DNA from: an uncultured bacterium | GTDB taxonomy: Bacteria > Patescibacteriota > Minisyncoccia > Phycocordibacterales > GCA-2401445 | DNA length: 64,000 nt | Reading direction: 5' to 3' | Assembly (NCBI GenBank): GCA_937952265.1 | Contig: CALFYW010000016.1 | Span: 13,086-77,085, forward strand | Shown here: piece after piece, positions 4,698 to 63,389 of the stretch | Layout: each line of letters begins with the position of its first letter | Position numbering within the stretch: position 1 is the stretch's first letter | Translations under genes and position numbers: made by a program | Notes under the pieces: generated by a model | Databases searched by the model: none | Told to the model about the DNA's origin: nothing | What the model saw: only the letters and a program-made list of their open reading frames with translations

Positions 4698-5153
4698 ATG
4701 AGATCCTACCAATCATTACTTCAAAAAATAGACAGGGGTATTATCAGAATGAATGGAAACATTACATCTCTTCTGTCACGATGGGCTCTCTTTATTATCT
4801 TTTTCTGGTTCGGATTTCTTAAAGTAATATCAGTAAGTCCCGCGGACCCTTTGGTTGAGGCGCTTCTCAAAGAAACCCTTCCTTTTTCTTTTGAATACTT
4901 TATCGTTTTTCTAGGAATTTATGAAATGTGTATTGGTCTCCTCTTTGTTATTCCGCGATGTGAACGAATTGCTATTGCACTATTCATCCCACACATGATT
5001 ACCGCCTTCTTTCCACTTATACTACTTAAGGATATGACATGGGCGGGATCTTTTATTCCTACCCTTGAAGGTCAGTACATCATTAAAAATGGAGCCCTTA
5101 TCGCGCTCGTGGTAAGTGTCGCAAGCCGTCTTCGCCCATTATCAAAGTCATAA
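4698..5153 (+). CDS. DoxX-like membrane protein
   Basis: Four predicted TM helices with a DoxX-like topology. Weak assignment. Confidence 0.35.
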   Translation: MRSYQSLLQKIDRGIIRMNGNITSLLSRWALFIIFFWFGFLKVISVSPADPLVEALLKETLPFSFEYFIVFLGIYEMCIGLLFVIPRCERIAIALFIPHMITAFFPLILLKDMTWAGSFIPTLEGQYIIKNGALIALVVSVASRLRPLSKS

Positions 5154-5157
5154 AAAA

Positions 5158-5194
5158 AGAATCTGCGCTATTTTCTTTGAGCAGATTCTTTTAT
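5158..5194 (+). terminator. Putative intrinsic terminator
   Basis: agaatctgc ... gcagattct stem followed by TTTT. Confidence 0.45.
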
Positions 5195-5484
5195 GTTTCT
5201 AAAAAGATCTCTTGGTGGGTAAAGAGATAATCAATCAGTACGGAAATAGCTATCCAATCCGTTTCACTGCGAAAAGAGGGAGTTGATACCATGGTGCAAT
5301 GCAATAAATTTTTTATTTCATTTAAAATTTTTGGAAGATCCCTCAAGGAAACCATTGCTGTTTCTTTTTCAAAATCTTCAGTATGAGAATTTGGTGTTAC
5401 TAGCACCAAACCGCTTCGAACCGCTTGCGCAATTTGATCTCGGGTAAATGACATAGGGCAAATATAGTATTTTTCAAAAAACAT
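5191..5484 (-). CDS. Hypothetical protein
   Basis: 97-aa ORF with no recognisable motifs. Confidence 0.25.
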   Translation of the reverse strand: MFFEKYYICPMSFTRDQIAQAVRSGLVLVTPNSHTEDFEKETAMVSLRDLPKILNEIKNLLHCTMVSTPSFRSETDWIAISVLIDYLFTHQEIFLET

Positions 5485-5561
5485 TTCTCTTACATTGATA
5501 ACTATTGATTTCTGATCAAGAGTTAATTCTTTCTTTAGAATACTCCATTTACACTCAAATG

Positions 5562-5591
5562 AAAACCACCCCTTTCGAAGGGGTGGTTTTC
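5562..5591 (-). terminator. Hairpin downstream of the RRM gene
   Basis: gaaaaccacccc-tttcgaa-ggggtggttttc; perfect 12-bp stem. Confidence 0.45.
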
Positions 5592-5620
5592 TTATTAAAA
5601 ATAAGTAGTGTTACTTATTT

Positions 5621-5893
5621 TTAATAGCTATTTGACGGTTTTCGCTCACTCATCGGTCGAGCTTCGCTTACAGAGATTGAACGTCCTTCAAAATCAGTTC
5701 CGTTTAATGTTTCAACAGCGCGGTCTGCGTCTGCATCATTTGCCATTTCGACAAAACCGAATCCTCGAGAACGACCAGTAACACGATCGGTAATAATATT
5801 TACAGAGGCTACTTCGCCTACTTTTGTAAATACTTCCCGAAGCGCATCCTCAGTAGAACTATAAGGGATTCCGCCAATATAAAGCTTCTTTGC
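5621..5893 (-). CDS. RRM-type RNA-binding protein
   Basis: RNP2 motif LYIGGIP and RNP1 motif RGFGFVEM. Start set at MAKKLY. Confidence 0.75.
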   Translation of the reverse strand, partial: AKKLYIGGIPYSSTEDALREVFTKVGEVASVNIITDRVTGRSRGFGFVEMANDADADRAVETLNGTDFEGRSISVSEARPMSERKPSNSY

Positions 5894-6081
5894 CATGTAT
5901 AATTTCAAAAAGCTACTTGATATACGTAGTGCGACCTTCTCACCGATAATCGCACGACACAAGGCACTGCCTGGAAGGGAATCTCGTTGAGACTAACTAC
6001 ACCTAGTAGTATACCCCATTATTATTAAAAAAGCAAGTCTTCAAAATACGGCTTGTTCATTAGGCCTAGCTTCGATACAAT

Positions 6082-7407
6082 ATGCGTATGTTTGAGAAGC
6101 TGCGCCATATTGCTACTGATCCTTATCGTGGTGTGCGTGATTTCTATCCCGAAGACCAGGCAGTACATAACTATCTGCTTCACACCATGCGGACCAGTAT
6201 GGAGCGTTTTGGATACGAAGAGTATCATGCTTCAATTTTGGAACCAGCAGAACTCTATCGAGCGAAGACGAGTGAGGAGATCGTGAGCGAACAGACCTAT
6301 ACCTTTACTGACCGGGGCAACAGAGAGGTTACCCTGCGTCCTGAAATGACGCCCACCACCGCACGAATGGTTTCCGCCCGAAGAAGAGACCTCGCATTTC
6401 CCCTTCGATGGTTTTCAGTTGCAAACGTATTCCGATATGAACGGCCTCAGCGCGGACGTCTTCGAGAACACTGGCAACTCAACGCTGATTTTTTCGGACT
6501 TGAAGGGATACACGCAGAAACCGAAATTATCCATACCGCATCCTCAATACTTAATACATTAGGTCTTAAAGAAACTGACTTCTCAATACAAATCAATAAT
6601 CGTGCTATTCTCCGAGAACTCCTTATCGAAGGTATGGGAATATCAGAAGCATCTTTCTCAACCATCACACGTATTCTGGATAAAAGAGAAAAAGTCCATC
6701 CTCAAAATTTCAAGGCGGCTATTTTTGATGCTTTTGGAAAAGAGACCGCTCAAGCTGAACGATTCCTTTCTTTTCTTGATACGAAAGATCTTCATGGAAT
6801 TATTGCTACATTTTCAAACCATGAAGCACTAAAAGAGAAGTTGCGGGATACCGAGGAGCTTATTCACAACCTTTCACAGAAAGGGGTTACGAACGTGAAT
6901 TTTAATCGAGGACTTGCGCGTGGTTTTGACTACTATACGGGTATGATTTTTGAGATTTTTGATACTGATACAAAAAACAACCGGTCTCTTGCTGGGGGTG
7001 GCCGTTACGATAACCTCATTAAAACATTCAGCGGGCATGATATTCCTGCCGTTGGATTTGGTATGGGAGACGTTACTATAGCCCAAGCACTTGAATCACG
7101 GGGGCTTTTACCTCCTTATACCTCACAAACCACCCTTTATCTCTGTATCGCCCAAACTGGGGCATTGCCTTACGCAGAGAAGGTTGCAGCGATGTTGCGA
7201 GACGCGCATATTAATACCGCAATTGACTTCACCGGAAAGAAAATTGGTGACCAGATACGTTACGCGGTTCGACACCATATTCCATATATCGCCTGTATTG
7301 GAGACCAGGAAGTTTCTTCAAAAAAGATAGTAGTGAAAAACCTCAAAGAAGAATCCGAGAAAACAGTCCCTGAAGACGAACTCATTACGTATTTAACACA
7401 TGAATGA
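6082..7407 (+). CDS. hisS: Histidyl-tRNA synthetase
   Basis: Class II aaRS motifs; N-terminus and the GGGRYD motif typical of HisRS. Confidence 0.9.
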   Translation: MRMFEKLRHIATDPYRGVRDFYPEDQAVHNYLLHTMRTSMERFGYEEYHASILEPAELYRAKTSEEIVSEQTYTFTDRGNREVTLRPEMTPTTARMVSARRRDLAFPLRWFSVANVFRYERPQRGRLREHWQLNADFFGLEGIHAETEIIHTASSILNTLGLKETDFSIQINNRAILRELLIEGMGISEASFSTITRILDKREKVHPQNFKAAIFDAFGKETAQAERFLSFLDTKDLHGIIATFSNHEALKEKLRDTEELIHNLSQKGVTNVNFNRGLARGFDYYTGMIFEIFDTDTKNNRSLAGGGRYDNLIKTFSGHDIPAVGFGMGDVTIAQALESRGLLPPYTSQTTLYLCIAQTGALPYAEKVAAMLRDAHINTAIDFTGKKIGDQIRYAVRHHIPYIACIGDQEVSSKKIVVKNLKEESEKTVPEDELITYLTHE

Positions 7408-9048: not shown

Positions 9049-10950
9049 CTATGATGTAGTTGAGTCATTGGATTCATCCTCTTTCTTCTTTTCTTCATAA
9101 TCGACATCTCTCGCTTTCTGTTCATCTGCTTTTCCTTCTTCCTTTTTTCCTTCTTGACTCATAGAGGCGCCGATTTTCTGTAGTGCTTGAGAAAGAGCCT
9201 CGGTTGATTTCTTTATCGTGTCAGTATCCTCCCCATCTTTTACCGCCTTCAACGCCCCAATAGCGTCTTCTACTTGTTTTTTAATATCTGCCCCAACCTT
9301 ATCTCCGTTATCTCGAAGTGCTTTCTCCGAGGTATAAATGAGCTGTTCTGCGATATTCCTGCTTTCAGCGAGCGCTTTCTTCTTTTCATCCTCTGCGCTG
9401 TGAACTTCTGCGTCTTTCTGCATTCGTTCGATGTCATCGCTCGAGAGGCCAGAGCTTGCTTCAATCCGAATCGACTGCTCTTTTCCAGTTGTTTTATCTT
9501 TTGCGCTCACTTGTAAAATACCATTCGCATCAACATCAAAAGTCACTTCAACTTGTGGTGTGCCTCTTGGTGCAGGAGGAATTCCATCAAGGATAAACTT
9601 TCCGAGGCTTTTATTATCTCCCGCCATGGCACGTTCTCCTTGTACCACGTGTATCTCTACTGAGGTTTGATTGTCGGAAGCAGTAGAAAATACCTGGGTT
9701 CGAGAACTTGGAACCGTCGTATTCTTCTCAATTAACTTAGTGGCAACTCCTCCCATTGTTTCAATGCCGAGTGAGAGTGGAATAACATCAAGCAGAAGGA
9801 TATCCTTTACATCACCTGAGATAACACCCCCCTGAATCGCCGCGCCAAGCGCAACAACTTCATCAGGGTTAATTGACCGATTTGGTTCTTTCCCAAAGAG
9901 CGCCTTCACCGCCTCAATAATTTTCGGCATGCGTGTCTGACCTCCCACCAAAATTACTTCGTCAATATCTTTAATCTCAAATGGGGATGCTTCAATAGCG
10001 CGTTTCGTGATACTAATTGCCCGATCAATATACTCTTCCGCAAGCTCCTCTAAGGTAGAACGTCTCATGGTGATCAAAAGGTGGCGCGGACCACTTGCAT
10101 CAGAAGTGATGAAGGGAATATTGATCTCTGTTTCAGTAGTCGTTGAAAGTTCAAGTTTTGCTTTTTCCGCTGCTTCATCAAGTCGCTGTAATGCCAAGGG
10201 GTCATTCCGCACATCAATACCACTATCGCGCTTGAACTCGTTCGCGATCCAGTCTACAATCTTTCGATCAATATCGCGTCCTCCAAGATGGCTATCACCG
10301 TCAGTTGATTTTACTTCAACCACATCATCACCCACTTCAAGGACGGAGATATCAAAGGTACCTCCCCCAAAGTCGAATACTGCGATTTGTTCGTTTTTCT
10401 TTTTGTTAAATCCGTATGCGAGTGCCGCAGCAGTAGGTTCATTGATAATTCGCTTTACTTCTAATCCCGCGATCTTTCCCGCATCTTTTGTTGCTTGGCG
10501 TTGCGAATCATTAAAATATGCAGGTACAGTAATAATTGCTTCCGTGATCTTTTCTCCCAATTTTGCCTCTGCGTCCTGCTTCATTTTTTGAAGGATCATG
10601 GCTGATACCTCCTCAGGGCGATACTCTTTATTTTCTAGCACCACCGAGACCCCACCGTTTGGTGATTTTTTAATTTCATAAGGAACTGAAGATTTATCTT
10701 TGGTAACTCCCTCATCATCAAATGTGTGCCCGATAAAACGTTTGATACCATACACCGTGTTTTTCGGATTGGTAACTGCTTGCCGTTTTGCCAAAAGACC
10801 AACAAGACGTTCTCCTGTCTTAGAAATTGCGACAATAGAAGGAGTGGTTCGAGCACCCTCCGCGTTTTCAATAATACAGGGTTCCCCACCTTCAATAATT
10901 GCCATTGCGGAATTAGTAGTTCCAAGATCAATACCTAGTATTTTTGCCAT
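9049..10950 (-). CDS. dnaK: Chaperone DnaK (Hsp70)
   Basis: IDLGTTNS and DFGGGTFD Hsp70 signatures. 633 aa. Confidence 0.95.
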
Positions 10951-34203: not shown

Positions 34204-34881
34204 TTAAAACCAGAAAATAGGTTTTTTTCCGTGTTGCGCGAGGTATTCATTGGTCTGACTGAAATGTTTATTGCCAAAAAACCCATTGTGTGCCGAAAAA
34301 GGAGACGGATGGGATGATTCTAGGATACAGTGCTTACCTGGATCAATAAGCGCCCTTTTAGCACGCGCGTAATTTCCCCAGAGCAAAAAAACAATATTTT
34401 CTTTCTTTTCCGAAATTGCCTGTATCACCGTGTCCGTAAAATTCTCCCATCCTTTATGTTGGTGTGAGCCCGCGACATGGGCACGTACGGTAAGCGTTGC
34501 GTTCAAAAGAAGTACTCCTTGCCGTGCCCAATGCTCTAAGTTACCGTGTTTGGGAATTTCTCCGCCTACATCACTCTGTATCTCCTTATAGATATTTTGC
34601 AGAGAAGGAGGCACCTGTATGTTTTCAGGTACGGAAAAACAGAGTCCGTGTGCTTGCCCTACACCATGATATGGATCCTGTCCCAAAATGACGACGCGCA
34701 CCTGGTCAAACGGGCATAGAGAAAACGCATGAAATACAAACTGAGGTGGTGGATATACCTTCGTGGACAAAAACTCACTCCGTACAAAGGCGCGTAATTC
34801 TTTGAAGTAGTCCTTTTCAAATTCATCAGAAAGCACGGCTTTCCACGATGGTTCAATAGCAACCTCCATGAAAAATATCAT
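34204..34881 (-). CDS. ung: Uracil-DNA glycosylase (family 1)
   Basis: ILGQDPYHG, GLCFSV and HPSPFSA motifs. Confidence 0.85.
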   Translation of the reverse strand: MIFFMEVAIEPSWKAVLSDEFEKDYFKELRAFVRSEFLSTKVYPPPQFVFHAFSLCPFDQVRVVILGQDPYHGVGQAHGLCFSVPENIQVPPSLQNIYKEIQSDVGGEIPKHGNLEHWARQGVLLLNATLTVRAHVAGSHQHKGWENFTDTVIQAISEKKENIVFLLWGNYARAKRALIDPGKHCILESSHPSPFSAHNGFFGNKHFSQTNEYLAQHGKKPIFWF

Positions 34882-34980
34882 AGCACATGAGTATATTCCG
34901 TTGTTTAATACCCATCAATCTTTTTTCAAATTCAGAATTGGTGGTGTTTGTTTGAAAAAGTTAGAACTCATTTCCGAGAA

Positions 34981-35247
34981 GGCAACGACTGACTCGCCCC
35001 GCCGCCCGCCTCCGCTAACGCTCCGGCGGCAACCTTGCAGAAACATTTTCTTTACAATTTTCTTTTTTGCGCGCGCCCCAGAAATTTTTTCAATTAAGGA
35101 AAAGAAAATGTTTCTGCTCGGTTCCGCCCGTGAAGTTTCCGGGCGGAGCGGCGGGGCTTCCACGCTCGGACGGCTCGGCATTCCTCCCCCAGACCCCCTC
35201 CTGCCGAGCCGTCCTCGCTTCGGGGCGGGAATTTTTTGCGGGGCTAC
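34981..35247. repeat. GC-rich palindromic repeat, copy A; inverted relative to copy B
   Basis: About 75-85% identical by eye to the reverse complement of 39483-39812. Its end (cgcttcggggcgggaattttttgcggggctac) overlaps the stop of the 35244 gene. Confidence 0.7.
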
Positions 35248-36068
35248 TTATCCTGATTTGCCTCCTCATTCGGTTTATATTCTATTTTAAGTGGTAAATC
35301 AGTCATTGCATAGTGAACAAATTGCTGTCCGAGGTCTGTAAGTTCATACTTTTCCTCACGGTCAAATGCTGATTTCATCTCACGAGAAGCAACATAACCT
35401 TTTGGTCTTTTTTGTGGAGTATCTTTCAAGAACCGTCCATCATAAGTTTTTTGTCTGTGTTGGCGTATAATCCCTCCTGTGCTTAAATCTCGGAACAGCA
35501 ATTTGTACAAATCGGCATCTGCCGAATCTTCGCGCACGGTTTCTTTTCCAATTTTTTCCCACACTTCACCTCGCGAAATACCGCCACTATTGTAAATTGC
35601 TCCGATGACATGGAAATGTAGTTCGGAATAATCTTTTAACCAGTCGATAAATAGTCGCACCACATCATCACTTGTTAGGTCTGAGGCGGCGGCATTCGCG
35701 AGAATATTTCTGATGTACATCCTCTTTTCGTCGCTTTCTGCTCCCGACCATTCTCGAAATGTCTTTTTGAGTAAGGATTGATACTCCTTGCTTTCAATCC
35801 TTCTGGCAATTTCTTCATCGTGAATATCGAGCCGCGCCATTATTTCGAGAATGGTCTTTTCTTTCTCACGAATTTCGTCTTCAAGCATTTTAATCCAATG
35901 CTTGAAAAAATTATTAACCTTCTCTTGTTCTTTTTCTGACCATGCTCCCGCCGCCGCTGAAAACAAGCCACCAGCAAATGGGACGGCTCCCCCGACAACT
36001 TGCAAAGCACCCCGAACGATTTTCGGGGCACCGCCTTCCTTTGGTAATTTTTTATCTTCTTCCGCCAT
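35244..36068 (-). CDS. Hypothetical protein (island gene 1)
   Basis: 274 aa, Gly/Ala-rich N-terminus, no known motif. A 4-nt gap separates it from the upstream gene. Confidence 0.45.
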   Translation of the reverse strand: MAEEDKKLPKEGGAPKIVRGALQVVGGAVPFAGGLFSAAAGAWSEKEQEKVNNFFKHWIKMLEDEIREKEKTILEIMARLDIHDEEIARRIESKEYQSLLKKTFREWSGAESDEKRMYIRNILANAAASDLTSDDVVRLFIDWLKDYSELHFHVIGAIYNSGGISRGEVWEKIGKETVREDSADADLYKLLFRDLSTGGIIRQHRQKTYDGRFLKDTPQKRPKGYVASREMKSAFDREEKYELTDLGQQFVHYAMTDLPLKIEYKPNEEANQDK

Positions 36069-36072
36069 AGTT

Positions 36073-37002
36073 CTATTGCAAGCTATCGATATATATTGTT
36101 ACTTCATCATCAAATTCTCTCACCAAATCCATTGAGTAAATCACACCTAAACTTTCTGCTTCGTCAGAACTTACCAACGATGGAACACCAATCATACAGC
36201 CATGTCTATCAACAGCTAATCCGCCAGAGTTTCCATGACTAATTTTTGCAGAAGTTACTATCAAACCATCACCGGGGAAACTACTAACCACACCATCGGT
36301 TACTGTTAGAGAATATCCTCCACTGATTGCCGGGTATCCGAAAATACGGATTGGCTCACCAAGTTGTACATATTCATTTGTGCAACTTGTTGTATCATCA
36401 AAAGTTGGAAATTTACGCGGATATACCCCCGCATATTCTCCAGTTTCTTCATCGTAGTAAGCTGCGTAAATTTCCATGTACGCCAAATCGTAATTATCGC
36501 TAATGGTTGGCAATACAATCGGATTAGCTAAATAGATACCGTCTGGCTGTCCAGTTACAGGATCGGGCAGGACAACTAGACATCCCGTTTCATCTACGTG
36601 GAGATAAACCTCGTCCTGGGGAATTATGTGCGAGTTTGTGAGAATTAAGCCATCCTCGCTTATTATCGTGCCAGAACCGCCACTTGATTCATCTTCCGAC
36701 TCTGTGCTTGGGCAGAAGATATTTACAACGGACGCCGCGATTGAATTTTGATTGTATGACGTCGTGTGCGTTGCTGGATAATCGGTCGTGCTGTAGTCAG
36801 TTGAAGAATCATCGTAAACACCAATAACAATAAAGAAAGCTAATACTCCGAGTATAATTAAAATCGCTTTCAAATGATCTTTAATCCATTGAGAAAATCG
36901 TTCTCTAAAAATTGCGAACCGACTAAATTTTAATTCATGCCCACAGTTCTTGCAGAATCTCGTACCCAGTTTTATTTTTTGTCCGCAATTTTTACAAAAC
37001 AT
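36073..37002 (-). CDS. Zinc-ribbon / TM / trypsin-like serine protease
   Basis: MFCKNCGQKIKLGTRFCKNCG zinc ribbon, one TM helix, and the triad context LTNSHI ... D ... GNSGG. Confidence 0.6.
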   Translation of the reverse strand: MFCKNCGQKIKLGTRFCKNCGHELKFSRFAIFRERFSQWIKDHLKAILIILGVLAFFIVIGVYDDSSTDYSTTDYPATHTTSYNQNSIAASVVNIFCPSTESEDESSGGSGTIISEDGLILTNSHIIPQDEVYLHVDETGCLVVLPDPVTGQPDGIYLANPIVLPTISDNYDLAYMEIYAAYYDEETGEYAGVYPRKFPTFDDTTSCTNEYVQLGEPIRIFGYPAISGGYSLTVTDGVVSSFPGDGLIVTSAKISHGNSGGLAVDRHGCMIGVPSLVSSDEAESLGVIYSMDLVREFDDEVTIYIDSLQ

Positions 37003-37003
37003 G

Positions 37004-37246
37004 TTATGTTAATTTACTTCCGCAATGAGTGCAGAATTTTTGCCCTTCCTCAACAGGAGAACCGCAAGACCAACAGAAACTGCCTTTTGCATCATTATCG
37101 CCAACATCTTTCGTCCCTCCAGTAACTTCTGCAAGTTCTTTTTTCTTTGCAATAAGTTCGTTCTTAGTTTTTTCATCTATTCGTCCTTTTACTTGAAATA
37201 GGAAATTAAGAAAATCAGGAAGAACAACAACGTTCATTACATCCAT
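37004..37246 (-). CDS. Small protein with C-terminal zinc ribbon
   Basis: CWSCGSPVEEGQKFCTHCG at the C-terminus. Start ambiguous; set to MDVMNV to limit overlap. Confidence 0.4.
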   Translation of the reverse strand: MDVMNVVVLPDFLNFLFQVKGRIDEKTKNELIAKKKELAEVTGGTKDVGDNDAKGSFCWSCGSPVEEGQKFCTHCGSKLT

Positions 37247-37793
37247 TGAATATGCAGAAAATTCCTTGTATTTCTTTTTTTTGGTCATCGCGAAATACAT
37301 GCAATGCACCCTGTTGTAGAATTGAATTATAGTATTGATCCCAGGGCAAGAGCTCTGGGTCTCGCCAAAATCTCTTTTTTAGTAATCCCTGCGGAGTAAT
37401 AGTTAGTGAGTCAATCTTTAATTCTTTATCTTTTGCAAATTTTAGAAGTAAATTGATTACTACGTGCGGTTTTATAAGATTTTCTATAACCGCATAAAAT
37501 TTTGCAAAAAGTTCATCTTTCTCTTTCTCGGTCTTTCCTTTTCCAATAAAAAATGTTCCAGCAGAGAATTCTATTTTATGAGTCTTCCCATTTGCTTGAA
37601 TCTTTATATTGTACTTACTCGTTGAACCAGCAGGTACAAAGTAGACAGTAGTGGTTGTTCTTGTTAGCAGATAAGATATGCCCTCAATATCGGTATAGTT
37701 TATTCGTTCGCCTTTATATACAAGGTAGTGTTCATAAAACAAAAGAGTCTGACTCCTTGAAACATTTATAGCGATGATTGGTTCTTGTGCCAT
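37215..37793 (-). CDS. Hypothetical protein (island gene 4)
   Basis: Its start ATG lies 1 nt after the stop of the upstream gene (taacatg). No motif. Confidence 0.4.
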   Translation of the reverse strand: MAQEPIIAINVSRSQTLLFYEHYLVYKGERINYTDIEGISYLLTRTTTTVYFVPAGSTSKYNIKIQANGKTHKIEFSAGTFFIGKGKTEKEKDELFAKFYAVIENLIKPHVVINLLLKFAKDKELKIDSLTITPQGLLKKRFWRDPELLPWDQYYNSILQQGALHVFRDDQKKEIQGIFCIFNGCNERCCSS

Positions 37794-37794
37794 G

Positions 37795-38478
37795 TTATTT
37801 ACTTTCGTTGCGTAAGTTATTTTCAGCAACTCCAAGGAGATATCCATGAATAAGTTGCTGAATTAAGCTATCTTTTATTCCGTCGACAACTGCCTTAGGT
37901 AGTTCCTTCAATGTTTGGTTTGACTCAAATAGTCCGTCTCCAATTTGGTCGTTAACAGCATTGAGAACAGTTAGTACATCATCGGGTATGGAAATAATTT
38001 TATTTGTATGATTCCTGAAAACACGCTTCCATTCTTCTGCCAAATCTTCATTGTCTTTAATCTCAACTTTTTTAATTGTTACTCCTTTCAAAATCTGTTC
38101 TGCAATAAAAACTTGATAAGCGTTGTGTACAAATGAAGTTAGATAGGATTTCACAGCTTCTATTGTTTTGTACGGCTGTTTATCAAGATCAATTTTATGA
38201 TTTTCTGTTAAGGTGTTTAGCGAATTATGGCTAAATCGCCCAATCATATCCCAAACTGCTTCCGAAGTTAGTTCATTGTATTTTTTTAGTTCATTACCCT
38301 CCGCACGTGCTATTTCTAAAAATTTTTTCCAAAGAATGTTGGCTGATTCTAACTTTGGATCATTTTCTTCTGGATTCTTTTCCGCTGACTCTTGCCCAGA
38401 CTTTTTCAAGCTGTGACCGCAACTGTCACAGAAATTCGCTTGGTCCGATATTTTTGTTCCACAATTTGGGCAAAACAT
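37795..38478 (-). CDS. N-terminal zinc-ribbon protein with unknown soluble domain
   Basis: MFCPNCGTKISDQANFCDSCG. Confidence 0.5.
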   Translation of the reverse strand: MFCPNCGTKISDQANFCDSCGHSLKKSGQESAEKNPEENDPKLESANILWKKFLEIARAEGNELKKYNELTSEAVWDMIGRFSHNSLNTLTENHKIDLDKQPYKTIEAVKSYLTSFVHNAYQVFIAEQILKGVTIKKVEIKDNEDLAEEWKRVFRNHTNKIISIPDDVLTVLNAVNDQIGDGLFESNQTLKELPKAVVDGIKDSLIQQLIHGYLLGVAENNLRNESK

Positions 38479-38487
38479 ATAATCATT

Positions 38488-39120
38488 TTATGGCATAAAT
38501 GTGCCAATAAGTACTAATAGAAACCAAATGACTCCAATTACTATTAAAACCACCTCACCACCAGAAAAACCTGGAGTCAGCACATCATCGCCCTTTATTT
38601 TCTCATTATTATAATTGATTGCTTTTTGAATCGACATCAATGGAATAAAGGTTGCGACTGCAATAATCAGCCAGAGAAGATTAAAACCAACGTCATACGA
38701 TTCAACCCTACTTAGACCATTTCCTATCACGAGGAGTAAAATGTAAGCAGTTGCCAACCACCCCGGCGAATAAGACTCTTTGTAGTCGTGACTTTTAGCA
38801 GATTCTAATACTTTTTTAAACAAACTATGACAGAAAAAAATAGCAAAGATAGCTCTCCAAAACGGTGATATTTTTTGCCCTTCTGCACTTTTAACTGCTT
38901 GCCAGTTTTTGTAAAACCAATAAATTTCATAAATACCTAAAGTAAGAATCGAAAACAAGGCGAGTCGTTTAGGAGATATAGCAAAATACTCAATATCAGT
39001 TATTACGTTTTCCTCGCTTTTCGAATTAGCAGAAGGCTGATTTTCTGCCAACTTTGCTCCACACTTCTGGCAGAATTTTGAACCTTCATCTATTTTTGAT
39101 CCACAGCTTGTACAAAACAT
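38488..39120 (-). CDS. N-terminal zinc-ribbon plus DUF4234-like membrane protein
   Basis: MFCTSCGSKIDEGSKFCQKCG, then LTLGIYEIYWFYKNW (DUF4234-like) and three TM helices. Confidence 0.5.
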   Translation of the reverse strand: MFCTSCGSKIDEGSKFCQKCGAKLAENQPSANSKSEENVITDIEYFAISPKRLALFSILTLGIYEIYWFYKNWQAVKSAEGQKISPFWRAIFAIFFCHSLFKKVLESAKSHDYKESYSPGWLATAYILLLVIGNGLSRVESYDVGFNLLWLIIAVATFIPLMSIQKAINYNNEKIKGDDVLTPGFSGGEVVLIVIGVIWFLLVLIGTFMP

Positions 39121-39125
39121 AATAT

Positions 39126-39332
39126 TTAATTTATTAACTCATCAACGGAAATATCCAACGCCTTGGCGACCTTTCGCAAGGTTTCAAGCGTAGGATTTTT
39201 ATTTTCCCCTGATTCCATTTTAATAATCGTATTATTGGCGACATCGGCCAATCTCGCCAATCGCTCTTGTGAAAGGCCTTTTTGCTTTCGCAACTTTTCC
39301 ACATTCTTTGATAAATTTTCGTTCTTTGACAT
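39126..39332 (-). CDS. XRE-family HTH transcriptional regulator
   Basis: LRKQKGLSQERLARLADVANNTIIKMESGE; start set at MSKNEN. Confidence 0.7.
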   Translation of the reverse strand: MSKNENLSKNVEKLRKQKGLSQERLARLADVANNTIIKMESGENKNPTLETLRKVAKALDISVDELIN

Positions 39333-39348
39333 ATCTTTAGTGTAGTAG

Positions 39349-39395
39349 TAACATTGAAATAGAGTATGCAAATCTTTTCAACTATTTCAATGTTA
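39349..39395. promoter_or_regulatory. Perfect 14-bp inverted repeat upstream of the XRE gene (candidate operator)
   Basis: taacattgaaatag-N19-ctatttcaatgtta, 17-63 nt upstream of the XRE ATG. Confidence 0.5.
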
Positions 39396-39482
39396 CATCT
39401 AAAATATAAAAAAGTCAAAACTAAAGGGAGTTCCCTGTTGCCCGCGCACGGGAGTGGTGGGGCAAGGGCAACTATAAATCCG

Positions 39483-39812
39483 GTAGCCCCACAAAAAATT
39501 TCCGCCCCGAAGCGAGGGCGTGGCGGAAGGAGGGGGTTGGGGGGAGGAATTCCGCCACGCCCGAGCGAAATCAGAAAGAGGCCGCACCCGCCGCCCTGAT
39601 CGTCAGAGCAGAGCACCACAGAAAAGTTTTGTTTTCCTTTTAGAAGAAAAAATCGGTCGCGCGCAAAAGGAAAATCGTAAACAAAACTTTTCTGTGGTGG
39701 GGCGAGAGTCAGCGAGCGGCGGGAATCTTGGCGGTGGATTTCAGAAACCCTTGGCATTTCCTTGCGGAAATGCCTGCCGAAGCGAGGGACGAAGCCCCGA
39801 GCGAGGCAACTA
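39483..39812. repeat. GC-rich palindromic repeat, copy B (longer; extra 5' module)
   Basis: gtagccccacaaaaaatttccgccccgaagcgagg ... matches the reverse complement of copy A. Internal 20-bp inverted repeat ccacagaaaagttttgtttt / aaaacaaaacttttctgtgg. Confidence 0.7.
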
Positions 39813-39820
39813 ATCAACTT

Positions 39821-39894
39821 TGGTGGACCTAGCGAGAATCGAACTCGCGCCTCTACAATGCGAATGTAGCGTCGTACCACTAGACTATAGGCCC
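39821..39894 (-). tRNA. tRNA-Ala (CGC)
   Basis: Hand-folded cloverleaf: G3:U70, anticodon loop TTCGCAT, T-loop TTCGATT, encoded CCA. Confidence 0.8.
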
Positions 39895-63161: not shown

Positions 63162-63235
63162 TGCCGGATCGTCTAATGGTAGGACAATGGATTCTGGCTC
63201 CATTAATCTAGGTTCGAGTCCTAGTCCGGCAGCCA
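63162..63235 (+). tRNA. tRNA-Gln (CTG)
   Basis: U1:A72 and G73 (Gln identity), anticodon loop TTCTGGC, T-loop TTCGAGT, encoded CCA. Confidence 0.75.
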
Positions 63236-63241
63236 AAAAGG

Positions 63242-63389
63242 TATGTCGCAAGGCGACATTGTTCGAGCTCTCGGCGTAAGCCGAAGTTTTGTGAGTAATA
63301 TTGAAAACGGAAAGACCAACCCAACACTTTCGACCATTAAGCGCATCGCAGATGCGCTCGGCGTGTCGGTAGATAGACTTTTGAAATGA
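63242..63389 (+). CDS. Short XRE-type HTH ORF (lacks helix 1), translationally coupled to the next gene
   Basis: MSQGDIVRALGVSRSFVSNIENGKTNPTLSTIKRIADALGVSVDRLLK. ATG is 6 nt after the tRNA-Gln 3' end. Its stop overlaps the next ATG (ATGA). Confidence 0.35.

Follow-up and report, generated by a model that had tools for sequence, protein, structure and literature searches.

A palindromic repeat as the probable boundary element of recombinase-associated, tRNA-adjacent cassette islands in bacteria of the Candidate Phyla Radiation

A stretch of 64,000 nucleotides from an uncultured patescibacterium (contig CALFYW010000016.1; "the window" hereafter means this whole stretch) contains, at about 35 kb, a long nested palindrome which recurs in inverted form in the same stretch. 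The question raised by this locus is what kind of element the palindrome belongs to. An initial annotation, made by reading the sequence, had left the choice between a structured non-coding RNA, an element resembling a miniature inverted-repeat transposable element (MITE), and a protein-bound cruciform site. Comparison with related loci from the Candidate Phyla Radiation (CPR, Patescibacteria) indicates that the repeat is very probably the boundary repeat of a cassette island that is associated with a recombinase and adjacent to transfer RNA (tRNA) genes. Inverted pairs of the repeat surround horizontally exchanged cassettes beside a large serine recombinase and tRNA genes, and with this context the mobile-element option agrees; a stand-alone non-coding RNA is not supported, and the repeat is not a classical MITE.

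Two inverted copies of a modular repeat

Only two copies were found within the 64-kb window (nhmmer). Copy A (34938-35247) has its sense on the minus strand, running from 35247 down to about 34938, and copy B (39427-39815) lies inverted to it on the plus strand, with its M1-M3 end at 39723; the sense strand is defined as the one reading GTAGCCCC..CCGAAGCGAGG. Alignment of copy A (-) with copy B (+) yields 73-74 % identity, i.e., the copies are diverged. The palindrome indeed lies inside 34981-35247, the extent initially assigned to it, but the unit is longer, reaching to about 34938, and copy B is inverted relative to copy A.

The repeat unit is about 310 bp long, non-coding and composed of four modules, M1 to M4, in outward order from the enclosed cargo genes. 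In the family, M1 has CCGAAGCGAGG preceded by either an A-run or a GC-rich variant, and M2 consists of 13-bp arms with the loop GGAGGGGG-NNN-GGGGGAGGAA. M3 is a nested palindrome: within the arms GCCCCGCCGC...GCGGCGGGGC lie two GC side hairpins together with a long AT-rich hairpin, the apex of which is GCGCGC. M4 comprises TCAAAA-17 nt-TAnAAT and the terminal tip CACC(A/G)CCA(A). Features delimiting the two copies and the tRNA-side border in the window (L numbers denote related loci):

39821-39894 (-): tRNA-Ala(cgc) gene, its 3' end ...GGTCCACCA being the proposed, attL-like attachment site
39724-39820 (-): remnant (97 nt) of the recombinase-flanking repeat (M5, or 'a'), joined to M3 at CCCGCCGC; aligned with L109 and L039
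39587-39723 (+): copy B M3, variant b, with outer arms CCCGCCGC/GCGGCGGG
39483-39562 (+): copy B M1 and M2, with B-type M2 arms GGGCGTGGCGGAA/TTCCGCCACGCCC at 39516-39528 / 39550-39562
39427-39482 (+): extra module of the copy beside the helix-turn-helix (HTH) gene only, GGGAGTTCCCTGTTGCCC...GGGCAACTATAAAT, holding the GTTGCCC/GGGCAAC stem
35213-35247 (-): copy A M1, GTAGCCCCGCAAAAAATTCCCGCC plus CCGAAGCGAGG, the cargo-proximal end, beginning at the stop codon of a 274-aa open reading frame (ORF); from the alignment of 38 copies
35168-35214 (-): copy A M2, perfect 13-bp arms GGACGGCTCGGCA/TGCCGAGCCGTCC (35168-35180 / 35202-35214) around the 21-nt G-rich loop GGAGGGGGTCTGGGGGAGGAA
34996-35157 (-): copy A M3, nested palindrome with GC-rich outer arms GCCCCGCCGC/GCGGCGGGGC (34996-35005 / 35148-35157), a predicted four-way junction
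34938-34995 (-): copy A M4, outer end with the terminus CACCACCAA, placed by homology to M4 of L039 and L109 and by junction comparison

The initial description of GC-rich outer arms around an AT-rich inner hairpin was borne out, all arms it named being present. These include the perfect 14-bp inner repeat of copy A (35038-35051 / 35104-35117), which is part of a 30-nt arm pair (83 %), and the further stems GGCATTTCC/GGAAATGCC and GTTGCCC/GGGCAAC of copy B. The 20-bp inner repeat reported for copy B exists as well but carries one mismatch at its inner end; the perfect repeat is 21 bp long with shifted ends (CACCACAGAAAAGTTTTGTTT, 39614-39634 / 39679-39699). Copy A combines A-type M2 arms with M3 variant a, and copy B B-type arms with variant b. 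The M2 stem of copy B differs from that of copy A at five positions, all of them compensated, and the inner AT-rich hairpin differs yet stays paired. The extra module at 39427-39482 is near-identical in L010, and related GGGGCAAGG... sequences precede other HTH-side copies.

A coding function of the repeat was rejected on inspection, as neither the ORF at 34868-35290 (+) nor that at 34915-35181 (-) is conserved in copy B, where the ATG is missing. Template and variable repeats of a diversity-generating retroelement were likewise dismissed, since no reverse transcriptase is encoded nearby in the window and the differences between copies A and B are not adenine-specific.

Inverted pairs around cassettes in CPR lineages

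A single pattern representing the conserved part was used to scan two collections, one of genomes and one of metagenome contigs; the family-wide counts of pairs, cassettes and variants given in the following refer to the matches listed. Ten true copies were obtained from CPR genomes assembled from metagenomes (Ryan-, Wildermuth- and Giovannonibacteria, Saccharibacteria, WWE3 and other Parcubacteria) and at least about 97 further copies from metagenome contigs (groundwater, sediment and similar). By the names of the homologues of its uracil-DNA glycosylase, the organism of the window itself falls within Parcubacteria/Paceibacterota. Hosts among the matches listed were CPR/Patescibacteria-type contigs throughout, false positives of the pattern scan (GC-rich Planctomycetota, Pelagibacterium and similar) having been excluded by inspection. 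The repeat had no match in PLSDB or INPHARED and is absent from IMG/VR, where the single pattern match (L143) was a chance match in GC-rich coding DNA. In the Wildermuthbacteria locus L008 (MHTS01000017.1, about 6440-6600), the interior of the copy is masked as an N run; it is readable in the metagenome locus L112.

At loci with two copies, the left copy is on the minus and the right copy on the plus strand in 19 of 19 cases, around 1.4-10.9 kb of DNA, so that M1 faces inward. Identity within a pair amounts to 97.5-100 % over up to 338 bp, except in the window (74 %), and the aligned-identity score between loci (identity x aligned length / 330) averages about 49 %. Hybrid M2 sites occur, with the arm combination A/B in L085 and L093 and B/A in L010, and B-type arms recur elsewhere. 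Moreover, every combination of M1 type and M3 variant is found, and identical repeats flank different cargos. Taken together, these patterns show that exchange within the conserved 60-bp M2 region is frequent; on this basis, the flanks may double as recombination arms in cassette swaps. In one cassette (L027), a tRNA-Arg(tct) gene (9729-9801) lies 9 nt from the M1 end of a copy.

Serine recombinase and tRNA junctions

In 14 related loci, a gene for a large serine recombinase adjoins a repeat copy, located outside one copy and abutting a tRNA 3' end. The predicted protein (about 470-530 aa) comprises the domains Resolvase, Recombinase and Zn_ribbon_recom, with a match to the integrase of phage A118 in the C-terminal part. 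The gene reads away from M4, a hairpin-rich leader of 300-450 nt (M5) coming first, and its 3' end abuts the 3' end of tRNA-Ala(cgc) in L039, L051 and L109 and of tRNA-Ser in L072 and L111. It is flanked by an inverted repeat of its own (99-205 bp, 86-99 % identity) which overlaps the cassette repeat by 4-8 bp.

Three types of junction are formed: tRNA to leader (J1), M4 to leader in inverted orientation (J2), and M4 to host DNA (J3). In L039 and L072, J1, J2 and J3 have in common a core of 4-8 nt that is identical with the 3' end of the tRNA (CCACCA with Ala, CCGCCA with Ser); in L109 and L111, it is common to J1 and J2. M1-M3, being the same in Ala-type and Ser-type islands, are unlikely to be the att site of that recombinase and would belong to the cassette border. 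The recombinase segment is found in opposite orientations relative to the repeat copy in L109 versus the left unit of L089, L080 and L105, and L089 represents an array of the order recombinase-cassette-recombinase-cassette.

The leaders of L111 (660-1040), L068, L104, L130 and L072 contain short GC hairpins with GAA, TTC or TCC loops (e.g., GCGCGCGAAGCGCGC, GCCACGCTCCGCGTGGC, GGGCAAAGCCC and GTTTCGCCAAAGGCGAAAC), the stems of which are kept while the loops change; such a string of hairpins could be a regulatory RNA or a set of protein-binding sites. A TCGGCAGG motif shared by M2 and the recombinase leader is a weak signal, its count in the window not being above chance. Beside the outer end of a copy in L072 (7376-7560) lies a tRNA-like 3' end (reverse complement of TGGCAGGAGGTGGGAAGATTCGAAC) without an ARAGORN or Rfam call, which could be a tRNA with an insertion, a piece of a transfer-messenger RNA (tmRNA) or a fragment left by integration.

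The island of the window

On the minus strand, the window carries in sequence tRNA-Ala(ggc), tRNA-Pro, tRNA-Ala(cgc), the M5 remnant, copy B (M3, M2, M1) and the extra module, followed by the HTH promoter, the HTH gene, the cargo, copy A (M1-M4) and a uracil-DNA glycosylase gene. Cores are present at the tRNA end (39821-39826) and at the M4 tip of copy A (34940-34945; TGGTGG on the plus strand, mimicking the tRNA-Ala 3' end); from these positions, the island spans about 34938-39820. The M4 tip of copy A is accordingly proposed, by sequence comparison, as the distal, attR-like island boundary. Fusion of M3 of copy B to the leader repeat at the shared CCCGCCGC shows that M4, the inverted leader copy and the recombinase gene have been deleted. 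In line with this, a tblastn search of the window for the recombinase returned only an ORF-tail match (39683-39847). As copies A and B also belong to different sub-types, the island looks like a recombined, immobilised derivative. An empty site would be expected to show GGTCCACCA abutting ATTCTGAATTTG, and a circle the M4 tip joined to AAGTTGATTAG.... Among relatives traced through the glycosylase gene, the closest (77 % identical) have a different gene order and carry no element.

Folding and covariation

RNA folding of 34981-35250 gave -122.3 kcal/mol (z = -5.5) for the plus and -123.4 kcal/mol (z = -4.05) for the minus strand, and none of the 200 dinucleotide shuffles used as controls was as good on either strand, in agreement with the initial expectation that both strands fold. 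Rfam searches at gathering threshold of the window and six related loci returned tRNAs only, and the best matches of a permissive search were microRNA hairpin models far below threshold; this accords with the initial failure to recognise signatures of signal recognition particle RNA, RNase P, tmRNA or 6S RNA. With no Rfam match and folding beyond that of shuffled sequences, the initial description of a structured element stands.

Covariation analysis, proposed at the outset for the case that at least five copies exist, was carried out with RNAalifold on 38 distinct copies. Of the 43 pairs predicted, 20 have changes on both sides, compared to 9.0 +/- 1.5 in shuffles. Paired cells amount to 97.9 % versus 91.4 % in shuffled alignments and to 39-48 % with partners slid. 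Helices 3 and 4, both part of M3, account for 15 pairs changed on both sides. M3 stems covary freely, whereas the M2 arms are near-invariant (identical in 57 of 76 copies), and the M2 loop is highly conserved, with two GGAGG motifs (CCUCC on the other strand). Wobble cells are balanced (24 G-U versus 18 A-C) without strand bias; pairing is thus kept equally on both strands, and an RNA gene on one strand is not supported, the near-invariance of the M2 arms beside freely covarying M3 stems being a second argument against it. Rather, conservation on both strands fits a device that folds in transcripts of either direction. A promoter consistently preceding the palindromes was not found, and truncated and hybrid copies persist in the family. 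Strong covariation in a palindrome hence need not mean an RNA gene.

Transcription signals and proposed function

Copy A contains a terminator-like hairpin (35209-35228) followed by GAATTTTTTG (T6) on the plus strand, and copy B a terminator-like hairpin with T6 on the minus strand (39520-39503). In both copies these hairpins read inward, and that of copy B sits exactly between the tRNA operon and the HTH promoter. The A-run in M1 is kept by 64 of 106 copies. M4 points outward, and the genes downstream of it in the same direction are tRNA, recombinase or glycosylase genes; in L039 and at the third copy of L072, tRNA genes begin 13-20 nt past the M4 tip.

Based on these features, the recombinase would integrate and rearrange the island at the tRNA-like core, J1 and J3 corresponding to the attL and attR expected after integration of an element with J2 as attP. 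Retention of J2 in inverted orientation is suggestive of an excised, circular form in which the segment M1-M4, core and leader start is present twice, as inverted copies. The palindromes of M1-M3 may act as a two-way transcriptional barrier on both strands, placed between the regulated cargo and the outward M4 promoter, from which transcription of the downstream host genes (tRNAs, glycosylase gene) or of the recombinase gene would be restarted. On this most economical reading, the terminal repeat would supply both insulator and restart promoter to an island whose genes are under tight control and potentially toxic and whose host genome is very compact. The conservation of M1-M3 as universal cassette flanks may additionally let recombination exchange cassettes. 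This mechanism as a whole, insulator role included, is somewhat favoured by the present data, while the assignment as island boundary is made with considerably greater confidence.

Several points weigh against this interpretation. The window itself has no recombinase gene, its two copies are merely 74 % identical and of different sub-types, and neither an excision circle nor an empty site nor an inversion isomer of a single locus was observed. The A/T run is absent in 32 of 106 copies, and the terminator scan calls only the M1 variant of the window, not those of L027 or L039. The -35-like hexamer of M4 fails the scan criterion, and in copy A the promoter-like segment is degenerate. Moreover, a terminator requires far less than a four-way junction of 160 nt and a hairpin of 47 nt, and the interpretation does not account for the constraint on the sequence of M2, its arms and its loop with two GGAGG motifs, beyond structure. 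Finally, assembly could have produced some of the perfect inverted ends on short contigs; the pairs within long contigs (L027, L039, L072, L083, L089 and the window) are not of this kind.

Alternative explanations

If M2 or the whole repeat were instead a recombination substrate, the recombinase, or homologous recombination following uptake of DNA, would invert whole cassettes or exchange them between genomes, as in recombinase-mediated cassette exchange. With 47 bp, the palindrome-like M2 has the size of a serine-integrase att site, and its arms are near-invariant; the occurrence of A/A, B/B, A/B and B/A arm combinations points to exchange at its G-rich centre, and the free combination of M1 types with M3 variants, identical repeats on different cargos, cargo in both orientations relative to the recombinase and the 97.5-100 % identity within pairs are all compatible with such a role. 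However, M2 is the same across islands specific for different tRNAs, bears no resemblance to the core junctions, and is therefore unlikely to be the att site of that recombinase; its identity in Ala- and Ser-type islands weakened this candidate. Large serine recombinases normally do not recombine identical sites either, and ordinary homologous recombination within the conserved stretch of about 60 bp could explain hybrids and shuffling, so that exchange as the proper function of the repeat is considered unlikely. A structured RNA with a job of its own, i.e., an antisense small RNA or an element of the 3' untranslated region that stabilises or regulates the cassette mRNA, appears more doubtful still. 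The small RNA would consist of a large 5' domain, a hairpin loop UUCCUCCCCCCAACCCCCUCC with two CCUCC motifs able to pair with ribosome-binding sites, and a hairpin plus U6 terminator. Strong folding and covariation, the highly conserved loop, the terminator-like 3' end on the antisense strand of both window copies and the probable transcription of copy A, directly after the last cargo ORF, would suit it. It is at odds with the balanced wobble cells (24 versus 18), the lack of a conserved upstream promoter (the antisense strand follows a tRNA in copy B and nothing consistent in copy A), the arrangement of two-copy loci always as inverted pairs around cassettes, the persistence of unfoldable hybrid M2 sites and of deletion variants without M3 (L012, L085, L107-, L125), and the missing Rfam match.

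There is very little to recommend each copy as an independent MITE, two insertions of which would flank the cargo as a composite transposon. The copies are indeed non-coding units of about 300 bp, internally palindromic and multi-copy across genomes, and contigs often break inside them. Yet only two copies occur in the 64 kb of the window, copies lie at cassette borders only, M1 is directed inward in 19 of 19 pairs, and an HTH gene stands at the cassette edge; furthermore, the M1 and M4 ends of a copy are unrelated rather than forming an inverted repeat, the junctions show no target-site duplication, and a serine recombinase rather than any transposase is associated. Least credible is a function of the nested palindrome as folded single-stranded DNA, i.e., as a priming site, single-strand origin or promoter at island entry. 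Single-strand origins of rolling-circle plasmids, Frpo of the F plasmid and the terminal palindromes of parvoviruses and Streptomyces are analogues, and nested palindromes as terminal inverted copies, symmetric pairing as expected of DNA and the abundance of mini-hairpins of the GCGAAGC/GCTTCGC type in M1 and the recombinase leader are in keeping with it. On the other hand, no cassette holds replication, relaxase or transfer genes, plasmid and phage collections gave no match, and the interior of M3 lacks flip/flop orientation variants.

Cassette cargo and HTH leader gene

An HTH_3 protein is encoded in 18 of 20 cassettes, always in edge position; this leader gene is of the XRE type (65-100 aa), is located 60-130 bp from M1 and reads inward. 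The cargo consists mostly of restriction-modification and other anti-phage genes, the families detected being N6_N4_Mtase (five times), N6_Mtase and Eco57I (three times each), ThsB_TIR and RVT_1 (twice each), RE_AccI, HNH and a dCTP deaminase-like protein. In L005/L043 (about 4700-6460), a reverse transcriptase is encoded beside a four-helix-bundle protein in one cassette, a combination typical of diversity-generating retroelements or defence-related reverse transcriptases. The cassette of the window comprises:

39126-39332 (-): XRE-type HTH gene, 68 aa, first of the cassette
35244-39120 (-): cargo of four zinc-ribbon proteins (one fused to a trypsin-like protease) and of 210-aa and 274-aa proteins without family match

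Upstream of the HTH gene, a perfect 15-bp inverted repeat (GTAACATTGAAATAG ... CTATTTCAATGTTAC, 39348-39362 / 39382-39396) overlaps the predicted HTH promoter (TTGACT-17 nt-TAACAT, 39418-39390, minus strand). The HTH repressor probably has its operator here, and the HTH genes of L006 and L012 are preceded by a conserved version of the region. In clustering, the zinc-ribbon proteins of the window group with those of the L072 cassette (L072 3985-7036), and no Pfam-recognised defence system was found among the zinc-ribbon cargo of the window and L072. Elsewhere in the window, a 48-aa XRE-type HTH ORF (63243-63389, plus strand) begins 8 nt past tRNA-Gln (63162-63235) and may mark the start of a second tRNA-adjacent cassette; no repeat copy was found near 63162-63389.

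Relation to known systems

Elements of this overall kind are known: islands of cargo genes next to a tRNA gene, equipped with a site-specific integrase and occurring in tandem arrays. Tycheposons (10.1101/2020.12.28.424599) and pipolin defence islands (PMC11551731) are tRNA-adjacent cargo or defence islands with a site-specific integrase, and a minority of tycheposons use a large serine recombinase (10.1101/2020.12.28.424599). Shared with them are the tRNA-proximal integrase gene, the copy of the tRNA 3' end at the distal boundary and the tandem arrays (here L089). In contrast to them, the cargo is bracketed here by structured inverted repeats of about 310 bp and the recombinase by a second pair, an internal inverted att-like junction is present, a replication module is lacking and the hosts are CPR bacteria.

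Hin/Gin-type invertases are small (about 190 aa) and act on crossover sites of 26-34 bp in inverted order, while Flp is a tyrosine recombinase. As in the invertible segments of Gin (G segment of phage Mu), Hin and Pin (PinQ, PMC12529663), inverted repeats flank a segment with the recombinase gene beside it, and the recombinase segment occurs in both orientations relative to the repeat (L109 versus L089, L080 and L105). Unlike the small invertases and Flp with their sites of 26-48 bp, the present loci possess a large serine recombinase and repeats of 300-480 bp; with a recombinase of about 470-530 aa that has RD and ZD domains, and with repeats of at least 300 bp, a Hin/Gin-type segment was rejected. 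Because both flanks are identical, a cassette flip would have no obvious regulatory effect. As in the yeast 2-micron plasmid, two inverted repeats would split the putative circle into two arcs.

Integron attC sites are imperfect palindromes of 60-150 nt, found in direct orientation after each cassette and with a gene for the tyrosine integrase IntI nearby. They were discarded as an explanation, since the enzyme here is a serine recombinase and the repeats form inverted pairs of about 310 bp with conserved sequence. Among palindromic extragenic elements, repetitive extragenic palindromes (REP), bacterial interspersed mosaic elements (BIME), Correia elements with outward promoters and intrinsic bidirectional terminators resemble the repeat as intergenic GC-rich hairpins accompanied by a T-run and, on the opposite strand, an A-run, and by promoter-like sequences at the edge. 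The repeat differs from them in being much larger, in its very low copy number per genome and confinement to cassette boundaries, and in the sequence conservation of M2 across distant lineages. Restriction-modification gene complexes flanked by long inverted repeats are reported by Furuta et al. 2010 (PMC2853133) to be mobile, with links to repeats and to homologues of integrases or transposases; in comparison, the present family has a defined and conserved, internally palindromic flank, an HTH leader and wider cargo.

In the literature on CPR bacteria combined with serine recombinases, inverted repeats or structured RNA, no description of this repeat was found. Nor is there a published description that we could find of palindromic cassette flanks of about 310 bp, a second pair around the recombinase, an internal inverted att-like junction, an HTH leader and CPR-only hosts.

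Implications for CPR bacteria

CPR/Patescibacteria have tiny genomes and few recognised mobile elements, and their gene flow is poorly understood. One may speculate, albeit with considerable doubt, that they share a pool of self-insulated, exchangeable defence cassettes, in which the M1-M3 flanks of about 0.25 kb would be barriers and recombination arms at once, so that cassettes could substitute for one another freely, whichever their orientation, even between lineages of phylum rank. On excision, the carrier would then form a 2-micron-like circle with two inverted att-bearing repeats, and the recombinase would also switch the gene that encodes it, by inversion, from ON to antisense-silenced and back.

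The repeat accounts for assembly breaks at such loci in CPR organisms. The compact module may insulate foreign genes transcriptionally in very dense genomes, and the natural large serine recombinases, with att sites predicted at tRNA 3' ends, are possible genetic tools for organisms that have almost none. The family as a whole represents a sequence-defined vehicle by which restriction-modification, Thoeris-like, reverse-transcriptase and other defence genes would move among CPR lineages.

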